Assembly: GCF_965641715.1 (NCBI RefSeq)
Contig: NZ_OZ282453.1
Source of the DNA: Escherichia coli
GTDB lineage: Bacteria; Pseudomonadota; Gammaproteobacteria; Enterobacterales; Enterobacteriaceae
DNA length: 64,000 bases
Reading direction: 5' to 3' (one strand)
The notes under the pieces are model-generated. The model did not search any database, had not been told where the DNA came from, and was given only the letters and a program-made list of their open reading frames with translations. This document shows positions 14,401 to 24,300 of the stretch, in pieces. The translations under genes and the position numbers were made by a program. The stretch's first letter is position 1; every line of letters starts with the position of its first letter.

Positions 14401-14763
14401 ATGAACGAAACAGAATTAAAACACGTTATCGCTCTGCTTCTGGAGGATGCAAAGCGCCTCCAGCAGCTGGCCCCAAATGCAGGCACTGAAGAGCGAATTA
14501 TTATGGCTAATAAAAGTCTACATTCTGCATATGATACAAATACAAAGCAAACAGATAAAAATATTATTGTTTATGGGCACAGCGTTAACAGAGAATTTGC
14601 TTACTTTGTTCTGGAAAAATATCAACCTACATTTTGCCGGATAATAGAAGAACTAACATTAAAAGGCAAAGATAAAGAGTTTATTGAAAATGCTGTGGCA
14701 ACGGCAAGCGCAGCAGCCGTTGCCAGTATCAAATCAATGATTGCTCTAGCGATTAACCAATAA
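14401..14763 (+). CDS. hypothetical soluble protein (120 aa), immunity-region moron
   Basis: AT-rich ORF downstream of repressor on the same strand, the position occupied by rex/sieB-type accessory genes in lambda. Confidence 0.5.
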   Translation: MNETELKHVIALLLEDAKRLQQLAPNAGTEERIIMANKSLHSAYDTNTKQTDKNIIVYGHSVNREFAYFVLEKYQPTFCRIIEELTLKGKDKEFIENAVATASAAAVASIKSMIALAINQ

Positions 14764-15728: not shown

Positions 15729-15803
15729 AATTAACTGACTATTCGAAACTGAATTTATGCCAGAAATGGCAGGGATTCACTCAACCGTAAAAAGGAAACA
15801 GCA

Positions 15804-16100
15804 ATGAACATTATTGAATGTGAAATTGAACTTGATGTCATTAACGATTCTCTCGCCGAATTTAAATGCGGGAATACATTACATGGTTTTATTCAGATTT
15901 CCCTGGAAGAAAAAGTTACGGTGATTATTGATGGCGGTTACGTTCTGGGAACATTTGATTGTTATGTATGTGCCGTTAAAGAAGTCGCATTACTCGCAGC
16001 TCGTATTGAAGAGGCCGACAAGAAATACGGTATCAGTTATCAACGACTGAAAGAACTCTCTTATATCGCATCATCAGTGCGTTTCTTTTATGCAATCTGA
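15804..16100 (+). CDS. racC: RacC-like protein (98 aa)
   Basis: Size and position immediately upstream of the recE-like gene. Confidence 0.45.
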   Translation: MNIIECEIELDVINDSLAEFKCGNTLHGFIQISLEEKVTVIIDGGYVLGTFDCYVCAVKEVALLAARIEEADKKYGISYQRLKELSYIASSVRFFYAI

Positions 16101-16123
16101 ATCTGCGTTGGGGTTAAAAAACA

Positions 16124-18109
16124 ATGAGCACAAAACCACTCTTCCTGTTACGGAAAGCGAAAAAATTATCCGGTGAACCTGACGTCGTCCTGTGGGCAAG
16201 CGACGATCTTGAATCGACCTGTGCCACTCTGGATTACCTGATCGTTAAGTCAGGTAAAAAACTGAGCAACTATTTTAAAGCTGTTGCTACTAATTTTCCT
16301 GTCGTTAACGACCTGCCCCCAGAAGGGGAGATCGATTTTACGTGGTGTGAACGCTATCAACTCGGCAAGGACTCAGTCACTTGGAAACTAAAACCGGGTG
16401 CAGCACCAGACAACGCTCACTATCAAGGCAATACCAACGTCAACGGCGAAGACATGACTGAGATTGAGGAGAATATGTTACTGCCGGTATCAGGTCAGAT
16501 TCTGCCTGTTCGATGGCTGGCACAGCATGGCAGCGAAAAACCGATCACACACGTTTCGCGGAGCGAACTGCGCGCATTACATAACGCACAGGATGAAAAA
16601 CTTCCCGCCGTTACCGCGCTGGCTATCTCAAATAAAGCAGCACAACTCGAACCGCTGGAAATTCGCGAGCTCCACAAACTGGTTCGTGACACTGACAAAG
16701 TTTTCCCTAATCCTAGTAATTCAGACCTGGGACTGATGACTGCTTTTTTCGAAGCATACCTGGGCGCTGACTACACCGATCGCGGTCTGCTTACAAAAGA
16801 GTGGATGAAGGGGAATCGTGTTTCACGCATCACCCGCACGGCTTCCGGTGCTAATGCTGGCGGCGGGAACCTCACCGATCGCGGCGAAGGTTTCGTCCAC
16901 GATCTGACGTCACTGGCGCGCGACGTAGCCACTGGCGTACTGGCCCGTTCAATGGATCTGGACATCTATAACCTTCATCCGGCACACGCTAAACGCATTG
17001 AGGAAATTATCGCTGAAAATAAACCGCCCTTTTCTGTTTTCCGCGACAAATTCATCACCATGCCTGGCGGGCTGGATTATTCCCGTGCCATCGTGGTTGC
17101 GTCCGTGAAAGAAGCACCAATTGGGATCGATGTCATCCCCGCGCAAGTCACTGAATATCTGAACAAAGTACTGACTGAAACCGATCATGCCAACCCTGAT
17201 CCGGAAATCGTGGATATTGCCTGCGGTCGCTCCTCTGCCCCGATGCTGCAGCGTGTAACAGAAGAAGAAAAACAGGATGATGAAGAAAAACCGCAACCAT
17301 CTTGCGCAATGGCAGATGAACAGGCAATGGCTGAAACAGTGGAACCGGATGCAACTGAACATCATCAGGACACGCAGCCGCTGGATGCTCAGTCACAGGT
17401 AAATGCTGTTGATGCGAAATATCAGAAACTGCGGACAGAACTCCATGAAGCCCGGAAAAACATTCCGTCCAAAAATCCTGTCGATGCAGACAAATTACTG
17501 GCTGCCTCTCGCGGAGAATTTGTTGAAGGGATTAGCGACCCGAATGATCCGAAATGGGTTAAGGGGATCCAGACCCACGATTCTGTGTACCAGAATCAAC
17601 CAGAAACGGAACAGAACGACCGAAAATCGGAACAGAACAGCCCAAATACGCAACAAAACGAGCCAGAAACGAAACAGCCTGAGCCAGTAGTGCAACAACT
17701 GGAAACGGAGAAAGTTTGCACCGCCTGCGGTCAGGCTGGCGGCGGCAACTGTCCTGACTGCGGCGCGGTGATGGGCGACGCAACGTATCAGAAAACCTTT
17801 AATGAAGAAAATCAGAATGAATATCAGGAAAAAGGTCTGGAGGAAATGGAAGGTGCTGAACATCCGCACAAGGAGAACGCTGGCAGCGTTCCGCATCGCG
17901 ATTGCAGTGATGAAACTGGCGAAGCAGCAGCTTCATCATTAGAAAAACTCGACTGGAAAAGACAAGTGGTGATTGCAGCGGTTTACGGTTTATGTGCGAA
18001 TCCTGCGGGTATAGCCTCAGCGCCATTAATTCCGGGTATTGCAATGATGATTGCAAACAAACTTGAAAATTTTGGGGTGACGGATGATGAGTACATGCCC
18101 AATTTTTGA
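16124..18109 (+). CDS. RecE N-terminal-domain homologue lacking the C-terminal exonuclease domain (661 aa), with low-complexity linker and Cys4 motif
   Basis: First approx 540 aa align with the RecE N-terminal region as I recall it ([14 protein letters not shown]...[30 protein letters not shown]...); C-terminus diverges into [16 protein letters not shown] plus a hydrophobic tail. Confidence 0.75.
17570..17700 (+). repeat. imperfect tandem repeats (GAAACGGAACAGAAC-like units) encoding a Q/E/N/P-rich linker inside the recE-like gene
   Basis: Read directly: ...accagaaacggaacagaacgaccgaaaatcggaacagaacagcccaaatacgcaacaaaacgagccagaaacgaaacagcc... Confidence 0.6.
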
Positions 18110-18383
18110 TCGCATTGAAGAGCAGGCATGGTCACGCCACTACCAGCAAATCGTTCGCGAAGAAAAAGAAACGGCGCTGGCGGACGACCTGGAAAAAGGT
18201 CTGCCCCAGCACCTGTTTGAATCGCTCTGCATCGACCATTTGCAACGCCACGGTGCCAGCAAACAGGCAATCAGTCGCGCATTTGATGACGATGTTGAAT
18301 TTCAGGAACGCGTGGGGGAGCACATCCGGTACATGGTTGAAACCATTGCTCGTCACCAGGTTGATATTGATTCAGAGGTATAA
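18084..18383 (+). CDS. gam: lambda Gam-like RecBCD inhibitor
   Basis: 99 aa; ...[83 protein letters not shown] matches lambda Gam. Confidence 0.85.
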
Positions 18384-18388
18384 AACGA

Positions 18389-19174
18389 ATGAGTACAGCA
18401 CTTGCAACACTGGCCGGGAAGCTGGCTGAACGCGTCGGCATGGATTCTGTCGACCCGCAGGAACTGATCGCCACTCTTCGCCAGACGGCATTTAAAGGTA
18501 ATGCCAGCGATGCGCAATTCATCGCGCTGCTGATCGTCGCCAACCAGTACGGACTTAATCCGTGGACGAAAGAGATTTACGCCTTCCCTGATAAGCAGAA
18601 CGGCATTGTTCCGGTGGTGGGCGTTGATGGCTGGTCCCGCATCATAAATGAAAACCAGCAGTTTGATGGCATGGACTTTGAGCAGGACAATGAATCATGT
18701 ACATGCCGGATTTACCGCAAGGACCGTAATCATCCGATCTGCGTTACCGAGTGGATGGATGAGTGCCGTCGCGAACCATTCAAAACCCGAGAAGGCAAAG
18801 AAATCATCGGACCGTGGCAGTCGCATCCCAAACGGATGTTACGGCATAAAGCCATGATTCAGTGTGCCCGTCTGGCCTTCGGATTTGCTGGTATCTATGA
18901 CAAGGATGAAGCCGAGCGCATTGTCGAAAATACCGCATGCACTGCAGAACATCAGCCGGAACGCGACATCACTCCGGTTAACGATGAAACCATGCAGGAG
19001 ATTAACACTCTGCTGATTGCCCTGGATAAAACATGGGATGACGACTTATTGCCGCTCTGTTCCCAGATATTTCGCCGCGACATTCGTGCATTGTCAGAAC
19101 TGAAACAGGCCGAAGCAGTGAAAGCTCTTGGATTCCTGAAACAGAAAGCCGCAGAGCAGAAGGTGGCAATATGA
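18389..19174 (+). CDS. bet: lambda Bet-like single-strand annealing protein (Red beta)
   Basis: 261 aa [27 protein letters not shown]... matches lambda Bet in length and sequence. Confidence 0.9.
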
Positions 19175-19851
19175 CACCGGACATTATCCTGCAGCGTACC
19201 GGGATCGACGTGAGAGCTATCGTGCAGGGGGATGATGCGTGGCACAAATTACGGCTCGGCGTCATCACAGCTTCAGAAGTTCACAACGTGATAGCAAAAC
19301 CCCGCTCCGGAAAGAAATGGCCTGACATGAAAATGTCCTACTTCCACACCCTGCTTGCCGAGGTTTGCACCGGTGTGGCTCCGGAAATTAATGCTAAGGC
19401 GCTGGCCTGGGGAAAACAGTACGAGAACGACGCCAGAACCCTGTTTGAATTCACTTCCGGCGTGAATGTTACTGAATCCCCGATCATCTATCGCGACGAA
19501 AGTATGCGCACCGCCTGCTCTCCCGATGGTTTATGCAGTGACGGCAACGGCCTTGAGCTGAAATGCCCGTTTACCTCCCGGGATTTCATGAAGTTCCGGC
19601 TCGGTGGTTTCGAGGCCATAAAATCGGCTTACATGGCCCAGGTGCAGTACAGCATGTGGGTGACGCGAAAAGATGCCTGGTACTTTTCCAACTATGACCC
19701 GCGTATGAAGCGTGAAGGCCTGCACTATGTCGTGGTTGAGCGGGATGAAAAGTACATGGCGAGTTTTGACGAGATGGTGCCGGAGTTCATCGAAAAAATG
19801 GACGAGGCACTGGCTGAAATTGGTTTTGTATTTGGGGAGCAATGGAAATGA
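19171..19851 (+). CDS. exo: lambda exonuclease (Red alpha)
   Basis: 226 aa [65 protein letters not shown]... nearly identical to lambda Exo as recalled. Confidence 0.9.
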
Positions 19852-20078
19852 GCGCAGCCATAAAGCTCACAGGAGAAAAACCAGTGCTATACACAAAAGT
19901 CAAACCATGTCCGTTTTGTGGTTGTCCATCAGTAACGGTGAAAGCCATTTCAGGATATTACCGCGCAAAGTGTAACGGATGCGAATCCCGAACTGGCTAT
20001 AGTGGAAGTGAAAAAGAAGCACTCGAAAGATGGAATAAACGAACTACTGGAAATAATAATGGAGGTGTTCATGTATAA
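19842..20078 (+). CDS. ralR: Lar/RalR-like restriction-alleviation protein
   Basis: 78 aa with CPFCGC and CNGCES zinc-ribbon motifs; position between exo and ydaC as in Rac. Confidence 0.55.
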
Positions 20079-20259
20079 AATTACCGCCACTATTGAAAAG
20101 GAAGGTGGCACTCCTACTAAATGGACAAGATATTCAAAATCTAAACTAACGAAATCAGAATGCGAAAAAATGCGCTCAGGTAAAAAAGAAGCAGGCGTTT
20201 CCAGAGAGCAGAAAGTAAAACTGATAAATTTTAATTGCGAGAAACGTCAGTCCTCGTGA
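20059..20259 (+). CDS. ydaC: YdaC-like protein (DUF1187)
   Basis: [43 protein letters not shown]...; start uncertain. Confidence 0.5.
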   Translation: MEVFMYKITATIEKEGGTPTKWTRYSKSKLTKSECEKMRSGKKEAGVSREQKVKLINFNCEKRQSS

Positions 20260-20358
20260 ATTGCATTGTATTCAAATTAAAACTTCATAGCTGATTATTA
20301 ATAATCAACATCGGGCGTCAATTTCAGTCTAACATTGGCGCCTGCCAGAGGTGATGCG

Positions 20359-20574
20359 ATGGCACAAGTAATCTTTAATGAAGAGTGGATGGTTGAATAC
20401 GGCCTGATGCTTCGCACTGGTCTGGGGGCCAGACAAATTGAAGCATACCGCCAGAACTGTTGGGTGGAGGGCTTCCACTTCAAACGAGTATCTCCTTTAG
20501 GTAAGCCAGACAGCAAACGAGGGATTATCTGGTACAACTATCCAAAGATAAATCAGTTTATCAAAGATTCATGA
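20359..20574 (+). CDS. xisR: excisionase (XisR-like)
   Basis: 71 aa from [33 protein letters not shown]; immediately upstream of int. Confidence 0.7.
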
Positions 20575-20575
20575 T

Positions 20576-21811
20576 ATGTCTAAATTACCAACAGGTGTCG
20601 AGATTAGAGGTAGATACATTCGCATCTGGTTCATGTTTCGAGGAAAACGATGTCGGGAAACATTAAAAGGCTGGGAGATTACAAACAGTAATATTAAAAA
20701 GGCCGGAAATTTAAGAGCGCTGATAGTTCATGAAATAAACTCCGGTGAATTTGAGTATTTAAGACGTTTTCCCCAGTCCAGCACTGGGGCAAAAATGGTG
20801 ACAACGAGAGTCATAAAAACGTTCGGGGAGCTTTGTGATATCTGGACAAAAATTAAAGAGACAGAGTTAACAACAAACACAATGAAGAAAACGAAATCAC
20901 AATTAAAAACACTCAGAATAATAATTTGTGAAAGTACCCCGATATCACATATTCGTTATAGCGATATCTTAAACTACCGGAATGAACTGCTGCATGGAGA
21001 AACGCTTTACCTGGATAATCCAAGATCCAACAAAAAAGGAAGAACCGTGCGCACAGTTGATAACTATATCGCCCTGCTCTGTTCGCTGTTACGTTTTGCG
21101 TATCAGTCGGGATTTATATCAACCAAACCATTTGAAGGAGTAAAAAAATTACAGCGAAACAGAATAAAGCCTGATCCGTTATCTAAAACAGAATTCAATG
21201 CATTAATGGAAAGTGAAAAAGGACAGAGCCAAAACTTGTGGAAATTTGCCGTTTACTCAGGACTTCGTCACGGGGAACTGGCAGCTCTGGCGTGGGAGGA
21301 TGTGGATCTCGAAAAGGGAATAGTGAATGTCAGAAGAAACCTGACGATACTTGATATGTTCGGTCCCCCAAAAACAAATGCCGGGATCCGGACAGTAACA
21401 CTACTGCAGCCTGCTCTTGAAGCACTGAAGGAGCAATACAAACTGACCGGACATCATCGCAAAAGCGAAATCACCTTTTATCATAGGGAGTACGGCAGAA
21501 CCGAAAAGCAAAAACTGCATTTTGTTTTCATGCCCAGGATGTGTAACGGAAAACAGAAACCTTATTACTCGGTAAGCAGTTTGGGGGCAAGGTGGAATGC
21601 AACAGTAAAACGTGCTGGTATTCGCCGCCGTAATCCGTACCATACGCGGCATACTTTTGCCTGCTGGCTGTTGACGGCAGGAGCGAACCCGGCATTTATA
21701 GCCAGCCAGATGGGGCATGAAACTGCGCAGATGGTGTATGAAATTTACGGTATGTGGATTGATGACATGAACGACGAACAGGTAGCCATGTTGAATGCGC
21801 GGTTATCGTAG
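20576..21811 (+). CDS. intR: tyrosine integrase (IntR-like)
   Basis: 411 aa; C-terminal catalytic region with HTRHTFACWLLTAGANPAFIASQMGHE; adjacent to ttcA start. Confidence 0.9.
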   Translation: MSKLPTGVEIRGRYIRIWFMFRGKRCRETLKGWEITNSNIKKAGNLRALIVHEINSGEFEYLRRFPQSSTGAKMVTTRVIKTFGELCDIWTKIKETELTTNTMKKTKSQLKTLRIIICESTPISHIRYSDILNYRNELLHGETLYLDNPRSNKKGRTVRTVDNYIALLCSLLRFAYQSGFISTKPFEGVKKLQRNRIKPDPLSKTEFNALMESEKGQSQNLWKFAVYSGLRHGELAALAWEDVDLEKGIVNVRRNLTILDMFGPPKTNAGIRTVTLLQPALEALKEQYKLTGHHRKSEITFYHREYGRTEKQKLHFVFMPRMCNGKQKPYYSVSSLGARWNATVKRAGIRRRNPYHTRHTFACWLLTAGANPAFIASQMGHETAQMVYEIYGMWIDDMNDEQVAMLNARLS

Positions 21812-21862
21812 TTGCAAAGTTTGCCCCCAATTTGCCCCATTTAGTACCAGAGAACTGAAATA

Positions 21863-22798
21863 ATGCAAGAAAATCAAAAGAATACGAAGAAAGAACAATA
21901 CAATCTGAACAAATTACAAAAACGCCTGCGTCGTAACGTGGGCGAAGCCATTGCTGACTTCAATATGATTGAAGAAGGCGATCGCATCATGGTTTGCCTC
22001 TCCGGGGGTAAAGACAGCTATACCATGCTGGAGATTCTGCGCAATTTGCAGCAAAGCGCGCCAATCAATTTTTCGCTGGTGGCTGTTAACCTCGATCAAA
22101 AGCAACCGGGCTTCCCGGAACACGTTCTGCCCGAGTATCTTGAAAAGCTGGGCGTTGAGTACAAGATTGTTGAAGAGAACACTTACGGTATCGTGAAAGA
22201 GAAGATTCCAGAGGGCAAAACCACTTGCTCACTGTGTTCTCGCCTTCGTCGCGGTATTCTTTATCGTACCGCAACGGAACTGGGGGCGACGAAGATCGCG
22301 CTGGGTCACCATCGTGACGATATCCTGCAGACGCTGTTCTTAAATATGTTCTACGGCGGCAAGATGAAAGGTATGCCTCCGAAACTGATGAGCGATGATG
22401 GCAAACATATCGTTATTCGTCCGCTGGCCTACTGCCGCGAGAAAGATATTCAGCGATTTGCCGATGCAAAAGCGTTCCCGATTATTCCGTGCAACCTGTG
22501 CGGTTCACAGCCTAACCTGCAACGTCAGGTGATTGCTGACATGTTGCGTGACTGGGATAAACGTTATCCAGGGCGTATCGAGACGATGTTCAGCGCGATG
22601 CAGAATGTGGTGCCGTCGCATCTGTGCGATACCAACCTGTTCGATTTCAAAGGCATCACCCACGGTTCTGAAGTGGTTAACGGGGGTGATCTGGCGTTTG
22701 ATCGCGAAGAGATCCCACTACAACCGGCGGGCTGGCAGCCAGAAGAAGATGAAAATCAGTTGGATGAGTTACGGCTGAATGTGGTTGAAGTGAAATAA
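21863..22798 (+). CDS. ttcA: tRNA 2-thiocytidine(32) synthetase TtcA
   Basis: 311 aa with PP-loop SGGKDS and CxxC motifs; matches TtcA. Confidence 0.9.
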
Positions 22799-22845
22799 CC
22801 AGGATAGCGCCCGATGCGCAAGCGTATCGGGCTACTCTTATGGAG

Positions 22846-22879
22846 GCCGGATAAGACGCGGCCAGCGTCGCATCCGGCA
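22846..22879. repeat. REP (palindromic unit) element
   Basis: GCCGGATAAGACGCGGCCAGCGTCGCATCCGGCA between convergent ttcA and dbpA. Confidence 0.55.
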
Positions 22880-22926
22880 ATCCCGAATAAGATGTTTACT
22901 CTTGCACCCGGCAATTCAACATTTCA

Positions 22927-24300
22927 TTATTTTAATAACCGCACCCGGCACGTTTTTCCTTTAATCTTCCCGCCCTGTAACTGTTTCCATGCTTTATGAG
23001 CAACAGCCTGACGGACCGCGACATAGACATGCGCCGGATGCACGGCGATTTTGCCAATATCTGCGCCATCAAGCCCGATATCTCCTGTCAGTGCACCTAA
23101 TACATCACCCGGGCGCATTTTGGCTTTTTTCCCGCCATCGATACACAACGTTGCCATTTCTGCTTCCAGCGTCACAATGGAACTATTAGCTGGCGGCGTT
23201 TGCCAGTTAAGTTTTATCTGCAACATGTCAGAAATGATATTGGCCCGCTGTGCTTCTTCCGGAGCACAGAAACTGATCGCCAGACCGCTATTTCCTGCAC
23301 GAGCTGTACGACCGATGCGATGTACATGAACTTCAGGGTCCCACGCCAGCTCAAAGTTCACCACCAGCTCAAGCGATTTAATATCCAGACCACGCGCAGC
23401 AACATCAGTCGCGACCAGTACACGGGCGCTACCGTTAGCAAAACGTACCAGGGTCTGATCGCGATCGCGTTGCTCCAGATCGCCGTGTAATGACAATGCA
23501 CTTTGCCCTACTTCATTCAGCGCGTCGCAGACAGCCTGGCAATCTTTTTTGGTATTGCAAAACACCACGCAAGAGGATGGCTGATGCAAGCTTAATAACC
23601 GTTGCAACAGAGGAATTTTGCCTTTGCTGGATGTCTCATAAAATTGTTGTTCAATGGGTGGCAAAGCATCTGTTGAGTCAATTTCAATCGCCAAAGGATC
23701 GCGTTGCACTCGTCCGCTGATTGCAGCGATGGCTTCCGGCCAGGTTGCCGAAAACAGAAGCGTCTGTCGAGATGCAGGCGCAAAACGGATGACATCATCA
23801 ATGGCATCGCTAAATCCCATATCCAGCATGCGGTCGGCCTCATCCATCACCAAAGTATTCAGCGCATCCAGTGATACCGTGCCTTTTTGCAAGTGATCCA
23901 GCAAACGACCCGGCGTTGCCACGATAATATGCGGCGCATGTTGCAACGAATCACGCTGCATACCGAACGGTTGACCACCGCACAACGTCAAAATTTTGGT
24001 ATTTGGCAGAAAACGCGCCAGCCGACGCAATTCACCTGCCACCTGATCCGCCAGTTCACGCGTAGGACACAGCACTAAAGCCTGGGTTTGAAATAGCGAC
24101 GCATCAATTTGCTGTAACAAGCCGAGGCCAAAAGCCGCCGTTTTGCCGCTGCCGGTTTTCGCCTGCACGCGAACATCTTTTCCGGCAAGGATCGCCGGAA
24201 GCGCGGCGGCCTGCACCGGCGTCATGGTTAAATAACCCAACTCATTAAGGTTCGTGAGTTGGGCGGGAGGCAAAACATTCAGGGTAGAAAAAGCGGTCAC
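22927..24300 (-). CDS. dbpA: ATP-dependent RNA helicase DbpA (DEAD-box)
   Basis: 457 aa; GSGKT Walker A, DEAD box (VMDEADRML), C-terminal RNA-binding domain. Confidence 0.9.
   Translation of the reverse strand: MTAFSTLNVLPPAQLTNLNELGYLTMTPVQAAALPAILAGKDVRVQAKTGSGKTAAFGLGLLQQIDASLFQTQALVLCPTRELADQVAGELRRLARFLPNTKILTLCGGQPFGMQRDSLQHAPHIIVATPGRLLDHLQKGTVSLDALNTLVMDEADRMLDMGFSDAIDDVIRFAPASRQTLLFSATWPEAIAAISGRVQRDPLAIEIDSTDALPPIEQQFYETSSKGKIPLLQRLLSLHQPSSCVVFCNTKKDCQAVCDALNEVGQSALSLHGDLEQRDRDQTLVRFANGSARVLVATDVAARGLDIKSLELVVNFELAWDPEVHVHRIGRTARAGNSGLAISFCAPEEAQRANIISDMLQIKLNWQTPPANSSIVTLEAEMATLCIDGGKKAKMRPGDVLGALTGDIGLDGADIGKIAVHPAHVYVAVRQAVAHKAWKQLQGGKIKGKTCRVRLLK

Follow-up and report, generated by a model that had tools for sequence, protein, structure and literature searches.

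The window analyzed here is a 64-kb stretch of Escherichia coli DNA in which a phage integrase gene, intR, lies directly upstream of ttcA and in the same orientation (Table 1). The 51 nt that the first-pass annotation had counted from the integrase stop to the start codon of ttcA were recovered. Pfam profiles assign the intR product an arm-binding domain (Arm-DNA-bind_2, PF12167, E = 4e-26) and a catalytic domain (Phage_integrase, PF00589, E = 1e-22), the xisR product a match to the putative excisionase family DUF1233 (E = 9e-21), and TtcA a PP-loop domain (PF01171, E = 1e-13). In an alignment to the integrase of Tn1549 (6EMY), R231, H356, R358, H381, and Y391 of IntR occupy conserved columns. 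On this predicted architecture, IntR is a tyrosine recombinase with an arm-binding domain, of the lambda Int type. Positions 20300–23000 (2.7 kb) were compared by megablast with 5426 complete E. coli genomes. Because 1840 of these genomes match at least 80% of the query, the insertion context of intR and ttcA is not a chance association. In DNA that is 99.1–99.6% identical, including that of K-12 MG1655, RefSeq names the genes xisR, intR, ttcA, and then dbpA. The Rac prophage of K-12 (Liu et al. 2015) has the same order of ralR, xisR, intR, ttcA, and dbpA. Its 71-residue XisR is identical to that of the window, and its IntR differs at 3 of 411 residues (322, 343, and 403), all of them non-catalytic, while the IntR of strain PEC41 is identical to that of the window. 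XisR (YdaQ) was demonstrated to be the Rac excisionase by Liu et al. 2015 (Sci Rep 5:16074, PMC4632033).

Table 1. Features at the intR–ttcA junction and in the adjoining prophage (window positions)
Feature	Position	Strand	Remarks
Prophage DNA: lysis, Q-like antiterminator, early/recombination genes, ralR/RalA, xisR, intR, arm	1-21886	.	Continues past window start
Endolysin	1119-1673	-	PHROGs
Holins	1666-2587	-	PHROGs
tRNA-Gly	2782-2856	-	
Q-like antiterminator	4261-4923	-	PHROGs
NinB	5090-5701	-	PHROGs
xisR, excisionase, 71 aa from ATG	20359-20574	+	ORF 20335/20359-20574
intR, tyrosine integrase, 411 aa	20576-21811	+	N-terminal arm-binding domain; TAG stop 21809-21811
Spacer, integrase-side arm of the attachment site, 51 nt	21812-21862	+	Two tandem TTTGCCCC motifs
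TTTGCCCC motifs, candidate arm-type integrase sites	21820-21827, 21831-21838	+	11 bp apart
ttcA ORF (tRNA 2-thiocytidine-32 synthetase), 311 aa	21863-22798	+	ATG start at 21863
Prophage-supplied surrogate ttcA 5′ end	21863-21886	+	ATG and codons 2-8, MQENQKNT, ATGCAAGAAAATCAAAAGAATACG
26-bp attachment core AAGAAAGAACAATACAATCTGAACAA	21887-21912	+	ttcA codons 9-17
Host-derived ttcA remainder	21913-22798	+	Colinear with ttcA of prophage-free strains

We aligned the window with the empty uspF–ttcA site and with the near and far prophage junctions of K-12, PEC41, Rac-SA53, and QML220601. In genomes that lack the integrase, such as YSP8-1, uspF is found directly upstream of ttcA. In this comparison with a prophage-free ttcA allele, which the first-pass annotation had envisaged, homology to the window starts only at position 21870, within the ttcA ORF. 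An exact 26-bp sequence, AAGAAAGAACAATACAACCTGAACAA, is common to both K-12 junctions and to the empty site. The window carries it at the same position as K-12 Rac, behind the same 51-nt spacer and with 25 of 26 bases identical; the exception, which also separates the window from the PEC41 and empty-site cores, is a synonymous C-to-T change at 21904. In GenBank entry KU052037 (Rac-SA53), the att annotations at the two ends cover precisely these 26 bp, and Liu et al. 2015 (PMC4632033) placed attL of K-12 Rac within the ttcA coding region. Sequence left of the core is colinear with the integrase arm found in other Rac-type prophages; to the right, residues 9–311 of TtcA are identical to those of YSP8-1 TtcA. 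The locus is almost certainly the integrase-side junction, which work on K-12 calls attL, of a Rac-type lambdoid prophage that sits in the 5′ end of ttcA. The first-pass annotation had put this junction at the ttcA start codon. A prophage–chromosome junction is indeed present, but its core lies 24 nt inside the gene, and the prophage boundary is better annotated at 21887–21912 within ttcA than at the integrase stop.

Given that the integrase stop and the ATG are merely 51 nt apart, and that intergenic integration is common among prophages, one could place the junction in the spacer instead, which would make the whole ttcA ORF host DNA with only its promoter displaced. We consider this highly improbable. 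Compared with the native allele, the ORF shows 9 nucleotide and 5 amino acid differences in its first 24 nt, which co-vary with prophage type, homology to integrase-less genomes begins inside the ORF, and relatives preserve an intact native 5′ end at their far junction. That native 5′ end, present at empty sites and far junctions alike, is ATGTCGCAAAATCAAGAAATTAGT and encodes MSQNQEIS; the window's MQENQKNT departs from it at five of eight residues (2, 3, 6, 7, and 8). Other prophages at the site carry further versions. The in-frame surrogate 5′ end of K-12 Rac encodes MQENQQIT, that of PEC41 encodes MKENQKNT, and the window shares its AAAAGAATACG variant (KNT type) with SA53, PEC41, strain 472, and QML220601. 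The earlier suspicion that the prophage might furnish the 5′ end of ttcA is thus borne out, with the ATG and codons 2–8 unlike the native ones and contiguous with the integrase arm. Its companion claim, that the ttcA promoter is prophage-borne, would follow from the geometry alone, because all DNA left of 21887 is prophage.

These features explain how the gene survives the insertion. Directly left of its core, the phage site carries its own, imperfectly matching version of the ttcA start (ribosome-binding region, ATG, and seven codons, in frame), and integration exchanges the first eight native codons, and presumably the native promoter, for those of the phage. Since the phage arm provides an in-frame surrogate start, ttcA is not inactivated and encodes a full-length TtcA of 311 residues with an altered N-terminus. 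The locus can serve as an example of a prophage in the 5′ end of a housekeeping gene that is kept alive by a surrogate start. In practical terms, the first eight TtcA codons should be annotated as phage-derived, and the N-terminal TtcA variant offers a marker of lysogeny at the ttcA site. For K-12, excision of Rac restores the ancestral TtcA′ with four amino acid changes, and carbenicillin reveals a fitness difference between the two TtcA variants (PMC4632033); PMC11014345 and PMC6379469 likewise report these points of Liu et al. 2015 on Rac excision and ttcA. Binding of IHF has been described near the ttcA start, beside attL (PMC8407004). The published IHF consensus of the K-12 site is AATCAACAAATTA; in the window, the N-terminus change turns it into AATCAAAAGAATA.

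The prophage-type junction is widespread. Its 119-bp version (21812–21930) occurs in 2902 of the 5426 complete E. coli genomes (~53%). The closest junction in that collection is 98.3% identical over the 119 bp, so the exact lineage of the window is absent from it. With the junction present in more than half of the genomes, the arrangement of integrase and ttcA might be taken as ancestral, the MQEN-type N-terminus as original, and the empty uspF–ttcA site as a secondary deletion. This reading, too, has very little probability in our estimation. Lysogens duplicate the native 5′ end, together with the sequence upstream of it, at the far junction, a pattern that fits insertion and not deletion, and empty sites from other genera retain MSQNQ-type starts (metagenome locus L018). 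Furthermore, laboratory excision restores the sequence of the empty site (PMC4632033).

Natural polymorphism allowed the crossover region to be narrowed. In Rac-SA53 and QML220601, the near junction reads AAGAAAGAGAT or AAGAAAGAAAT, as opposed to the host-type AAGAAAGAACA at the far junction, and the two junctions of these elements are identical over ATACAACCTGAACAA only. The phage-specific bases lie in the left part of the core and are absent from the window. Because the left 11 bp of the SA53 and QML220601 cores carry phage-type bases, the crossover would be confined to the right 15 bp, most likely positions 21898–21912 of the window, provided that the clustered differences predate integration. 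Strand exchange would then most likely take place within ATACAA(C/T)CTGAACAA. The best-supported mechanism is a lambda-like site-specific recombination, its chemistry inferred, in which IntR, joined by XisR for excision, would recombine the phage site with the 26-bp stretch of ttcA that spans codons 9–17 (KKEQYNLNK) and is conserved across enterobacteria.

The T at 21904 is present in none of the 10 other near-junction or empty-site sequences that were aligned. Six metagenome loci were recovered in a scan for the core with this T. Two of them (L021 and L022) are empty uspF–ttcA sites of the E. coli type, and L022 has the CGC codon of the window at 21922–21924 as well. Another two (L018 and L020) look like ttcA of other genera by their divergent flanks, with L018 retaining a uspF-type upstream region. 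The remaining loci are a Rac-like integrase-side junction, apparently from another genus (L019), and a far junction that belongs to another element (L017); none of the six is a Rac-type far junction with the T-variant core. The T is probably a host polymorphism that occurs at unoccupied sites.

Within the spacer, two tandem TTTGCCCC motifs begin nine bases past the integrase stop. The tandem arrangement with 11-bp spacing recurs on the far arm of PEC41 and K-12, together with degenerate copies, approximately 100–150 nt from the core. In the related element at L017, whose far arm is otherwise unrelated, tandem TTTGCCCC lies ~90–150 nt from the core. The motifs are decayed in genomes that hold only an integrase remnant. 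Across the window as a whole, TTTGCCCC is not above chance (5 observed versus 3.0 expected). The clustering on both arms suggests, as a lead, that TTTGCCCC represents candidate arm-type sites for the PF12167 domain.

The first-pass annotation had found no direct repeat of the junction in the first 1.2 kb and had placed the second attachment site outside the window. The absence of a repeat now extends to the entire 64 kb. Even with up to 3 mismatches allowed, the 26-bp core is present just once in the window (0 copies expected by chance), and in an exact k-mer search down to 12 nt, no sequence of 14 nt or longer from 21780–21960 recurs. Two 12-mers shared with that region are chance matches, not a second junction. 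With a single core copy and a window that starts among prophage lysis genes, the second site does lie beyond its limits. Far junctions in K-12, PEC41, Rac-SA53, and QML220601 indicate the expected layout, with uspF followed by the native upstream region and 5′ end, the core, and phage DNA. The phage DNA after the far core starts with GTAAGGG or GTCAGAG and closes a 17-codon stub with a stop. In these relatives, the native promoter and 17 codons remain beside uspF as a ttcC′ stub with TAA at the junction. The two cores of the PEC41 prophage at the ttcA site, the closest ttcA-site relative, are 44.1 kb apart.

Beyond the junction, the prophage body resembles the ttcA-site prophages of K-12 and PEC41 in patches and is a mosaic different from either. 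K-12 Rac matches only parts of 10.5–17.9 kb, at 83–96%, and is deleted where the window has its lysis and Q modules. Similarity of the window prophage to the PEC41 ttcA-site prophage extends over only 65% of its 20.5 kb. Positions 1–1200 are 100% identical to EC416 and to a PEC41 prophage other than the one at ttcA; in EC416, genes for the small and large terminase, the portal, and the head lie to the left of this DNA. The left end of the window is therefore prophage interior, given the lysis cassette in 1–2600 and the terminase and head genes further left in identical DNA elsewhere.

Whether such an element is still mobile bears on how the junction should be read. Some E. coli strains hold just a 231-nt integrase remnant beside ttcA with decayed TTTGCCCC motifs, and K-12 Rac is itself defective. 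By analogy, the window could hold a fixed, immobile remnant and a fossil junction, the far att site, which lies beyond the window, being lost or mismatched, for example, at the T at 21904 that the 10 aligned sequences lack. We judge this unlikely, although it deserves more weight than the two alternatives discussed above. Both xisR and intR are intact and almost the same as their K-12 counterparts, which are proficient in excision, and the early, Q, and lysis region appears complete in the window. Moreover, some empty host sites have the T variant, such that both cores may carry it, and even the defective Rac of K-12 still excises (PMC4632033).

The integration site, the amino acid changes in TtcA, and their effect on fitness have already been described in K-12 (Liu et al. 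2015), and the phenomenon is both known and common. Rac-like prophages occupy the same site in O157 strains, Shigella, and Salmonella (PMC4632033, PMC11014345, and PMC6379469). Rac-SA53 (KU052037), CP-933R/Sp10 of O157:H7, and the PEC41 element share the integrase family and the site and have full-size lambdoid genomes; the Rac-SA53 record comprises 52.3 kb including short host flanks, and the PEC41 element 44.1 kb. To this picture, the present analysis makes small additions, namely, a crossover region that natural polymorphism narrows to 15 of the 26 bp, the candidate TTTGCCCC arm sites, and the junction frequency of ~53%. Phage 21 integrates in icd and brings a replacement gene end, on the same principle as e14. 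Both of these elements replace the 3′ end of their target gene, whereas here the 5′ end is replaced, which also exchanges the start codon, the region of translation initiation, and the promoter. For e14, PMC6379469 describes an att site inside the icd ORF, a phage arm that gives an in-frame substitute end, and a gene that stays functional despite a few altered amino acids.

Exchange of the promoter raises the matter of how ttcA is expressed in a lysogen. Scanning of 21400–22000 gave no sigma-70-like promoter and no terminator-like hairpin, and the folding z-score of +1.1 for 21790–21900 indicates no stable RNA structure there. An Rfam scan of 19000–23500 returned nothing at the junction, its hits being limited to RalA and a sub-threshold naRNA4 match. 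The native uspF–ttcA spacer has a terminator-like hairpin of uspF and one weak promoter-like site, the latter no more than shuffled versions of the spacer give. The main text of the RpoD promoter atlas mentions neither intR nor ydaO. Judged from these scans, ttcA may be transcribed by read-through from intR or from a non-consensus promoter in the intR 3′ end. The xisR–intR transcript is reportedly induced by RpoS in K-12. Because the stretch between the two genes has no promoter- or terminator-like signal and the native promoter stays at the far junction, ttcA in a lysogen might be mainly the tail of the xisR–intR transcript. This proposal is speculative, and we rate its chances as low, below those of an immobile remnant. 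If true, it would tie s2C32 thiolation of tRNA to the excision module of the prophage in lysogens, and the phage-encoded N-terminal octapeptide, which is polymorphic, could tune TtcA differently between lysogens.

The junctions of two Rac-type relatives delimit where integration would have occurred within ttcA. In both Rac-SA53 (KU052037) and QML220601, the near (integrase-side) and far (uspF-side) junctions diverge in the leftmost 11 of the 26 bp annotated as the core (alignments A2 and A3; loci L006, L009, L014, and L015), so the crossover, judged from these sequences, must be confined to the right 15 bp of the core, ATACAACCTGAACAA (window 21898-21912). Within this segment, position 21904 carries a synonymous C>T change. 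Of the ten other sequences in the alignment, all from near junctions or empty sites, none shares it; it is found at empty uspF–ttcA sites of metagenome contigs (L021 and L022), the latter of which also has the CGC codon of the window (21924) in common. The T at 21904 thus looks like a host-lineage polymorphism. Published accounts differ on the effects of excising K-12 Rac, given in one as four TtcA changes (PMC4632033) and in another as Q6E and T8S with three base changes (PMC11014345). The K-12 sequences compared here differ at four amino acids and seven bases; setting the deletion boundary after the shared AAAATCAA would yield the smaller count (Q6E and T8S, three bases).

Outside the core, both attachment-site arms of several Rac-type elements contain tandem TTTGCCCC motifs at 11-bp spacing; one of these elements has a far arm that is unrelated. 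These repeats are candidate arm-type IntR binding sites, and their positions are listed in the accompanying table. The IHF consensus reported at the K-12 site is AATCAACAAATTA, which matches WATCAANNNNTTA. At 21872-21884, the window allele instead reads AATCAAAAGAATA and has lost the TTA element, a variant also present in PEC41, SA53, strain 472, and QML220601.

Coordinates of candidate arm-type motifs and of RNA genes in the window prophage
Feature	Locus	Coordinates	Strand	Remarks
Tandem TTTGCCCC motifs	Window	21820-21827 and 21831-21838		Integrase-side arm
Tandem TTTGCCCC motifs	L005	17416-17434		
Tandem TTTGCCCC motifs	L004	about 7745-7800		
Tandem TTTGCCCC motifs	L017 (metagenome contig)	about 14410-14470		
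RalA antitoxin sRNA	Window	20077-20255	-	Rfam RF02694, 205.5 bits, above the gathering score
Prophage-borne tRNA-Gly, anticodon TCC	Window	2782-2856	-	Flanked by the Q-like antiterminator region and the holin genes

On metagenome contig L017 (14540-14603), the native ttcA 5' end and core are fused to a different element. The arm of that element, which contains TTGCCC-type repeats, starts 6 nt farther to the right, following ...CTGAACAAATTACA. This element appears to be a second phage type with the same ttcA site. In some E. coli genomes (WP5-S18 and CRE287), only a 231-nt integrase 3' remnant lies beside ttcA, the TtcA N-terminus is still of the prophage type, and the TTTGCCCC motifs have decayed. 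Such remnants represent fixed scars left by a former Rac-type prophage.

Comparison with relatives indicates that the window prophage is mosaic, with at least two of them represented in it. Nucleotides 1-1200 match, at 100% identity, a segment of another prophage that PEC41 and EC416 carry elsewhere; against the PEC41 prophage at ttcA, identity is only 86%, over 270 nt. The recombination module (15800-19900) is unlike that of either K-12 Rac or PEC41. Where these carry recE (866 or 1042 amino acids) and recT, the window has ORFs of 661, 261, and 226 amino acids, and 15797-16093 and 17925-19894 had no match to either prophage. RalA adjoins the position of ralR, the latter placed from PEC41 and K-12 annotation; the Rac type I toxin-antitoxin pair therefore looks conserved. 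The tRNA-Gly (TCC) is found at the same position in PEC41.
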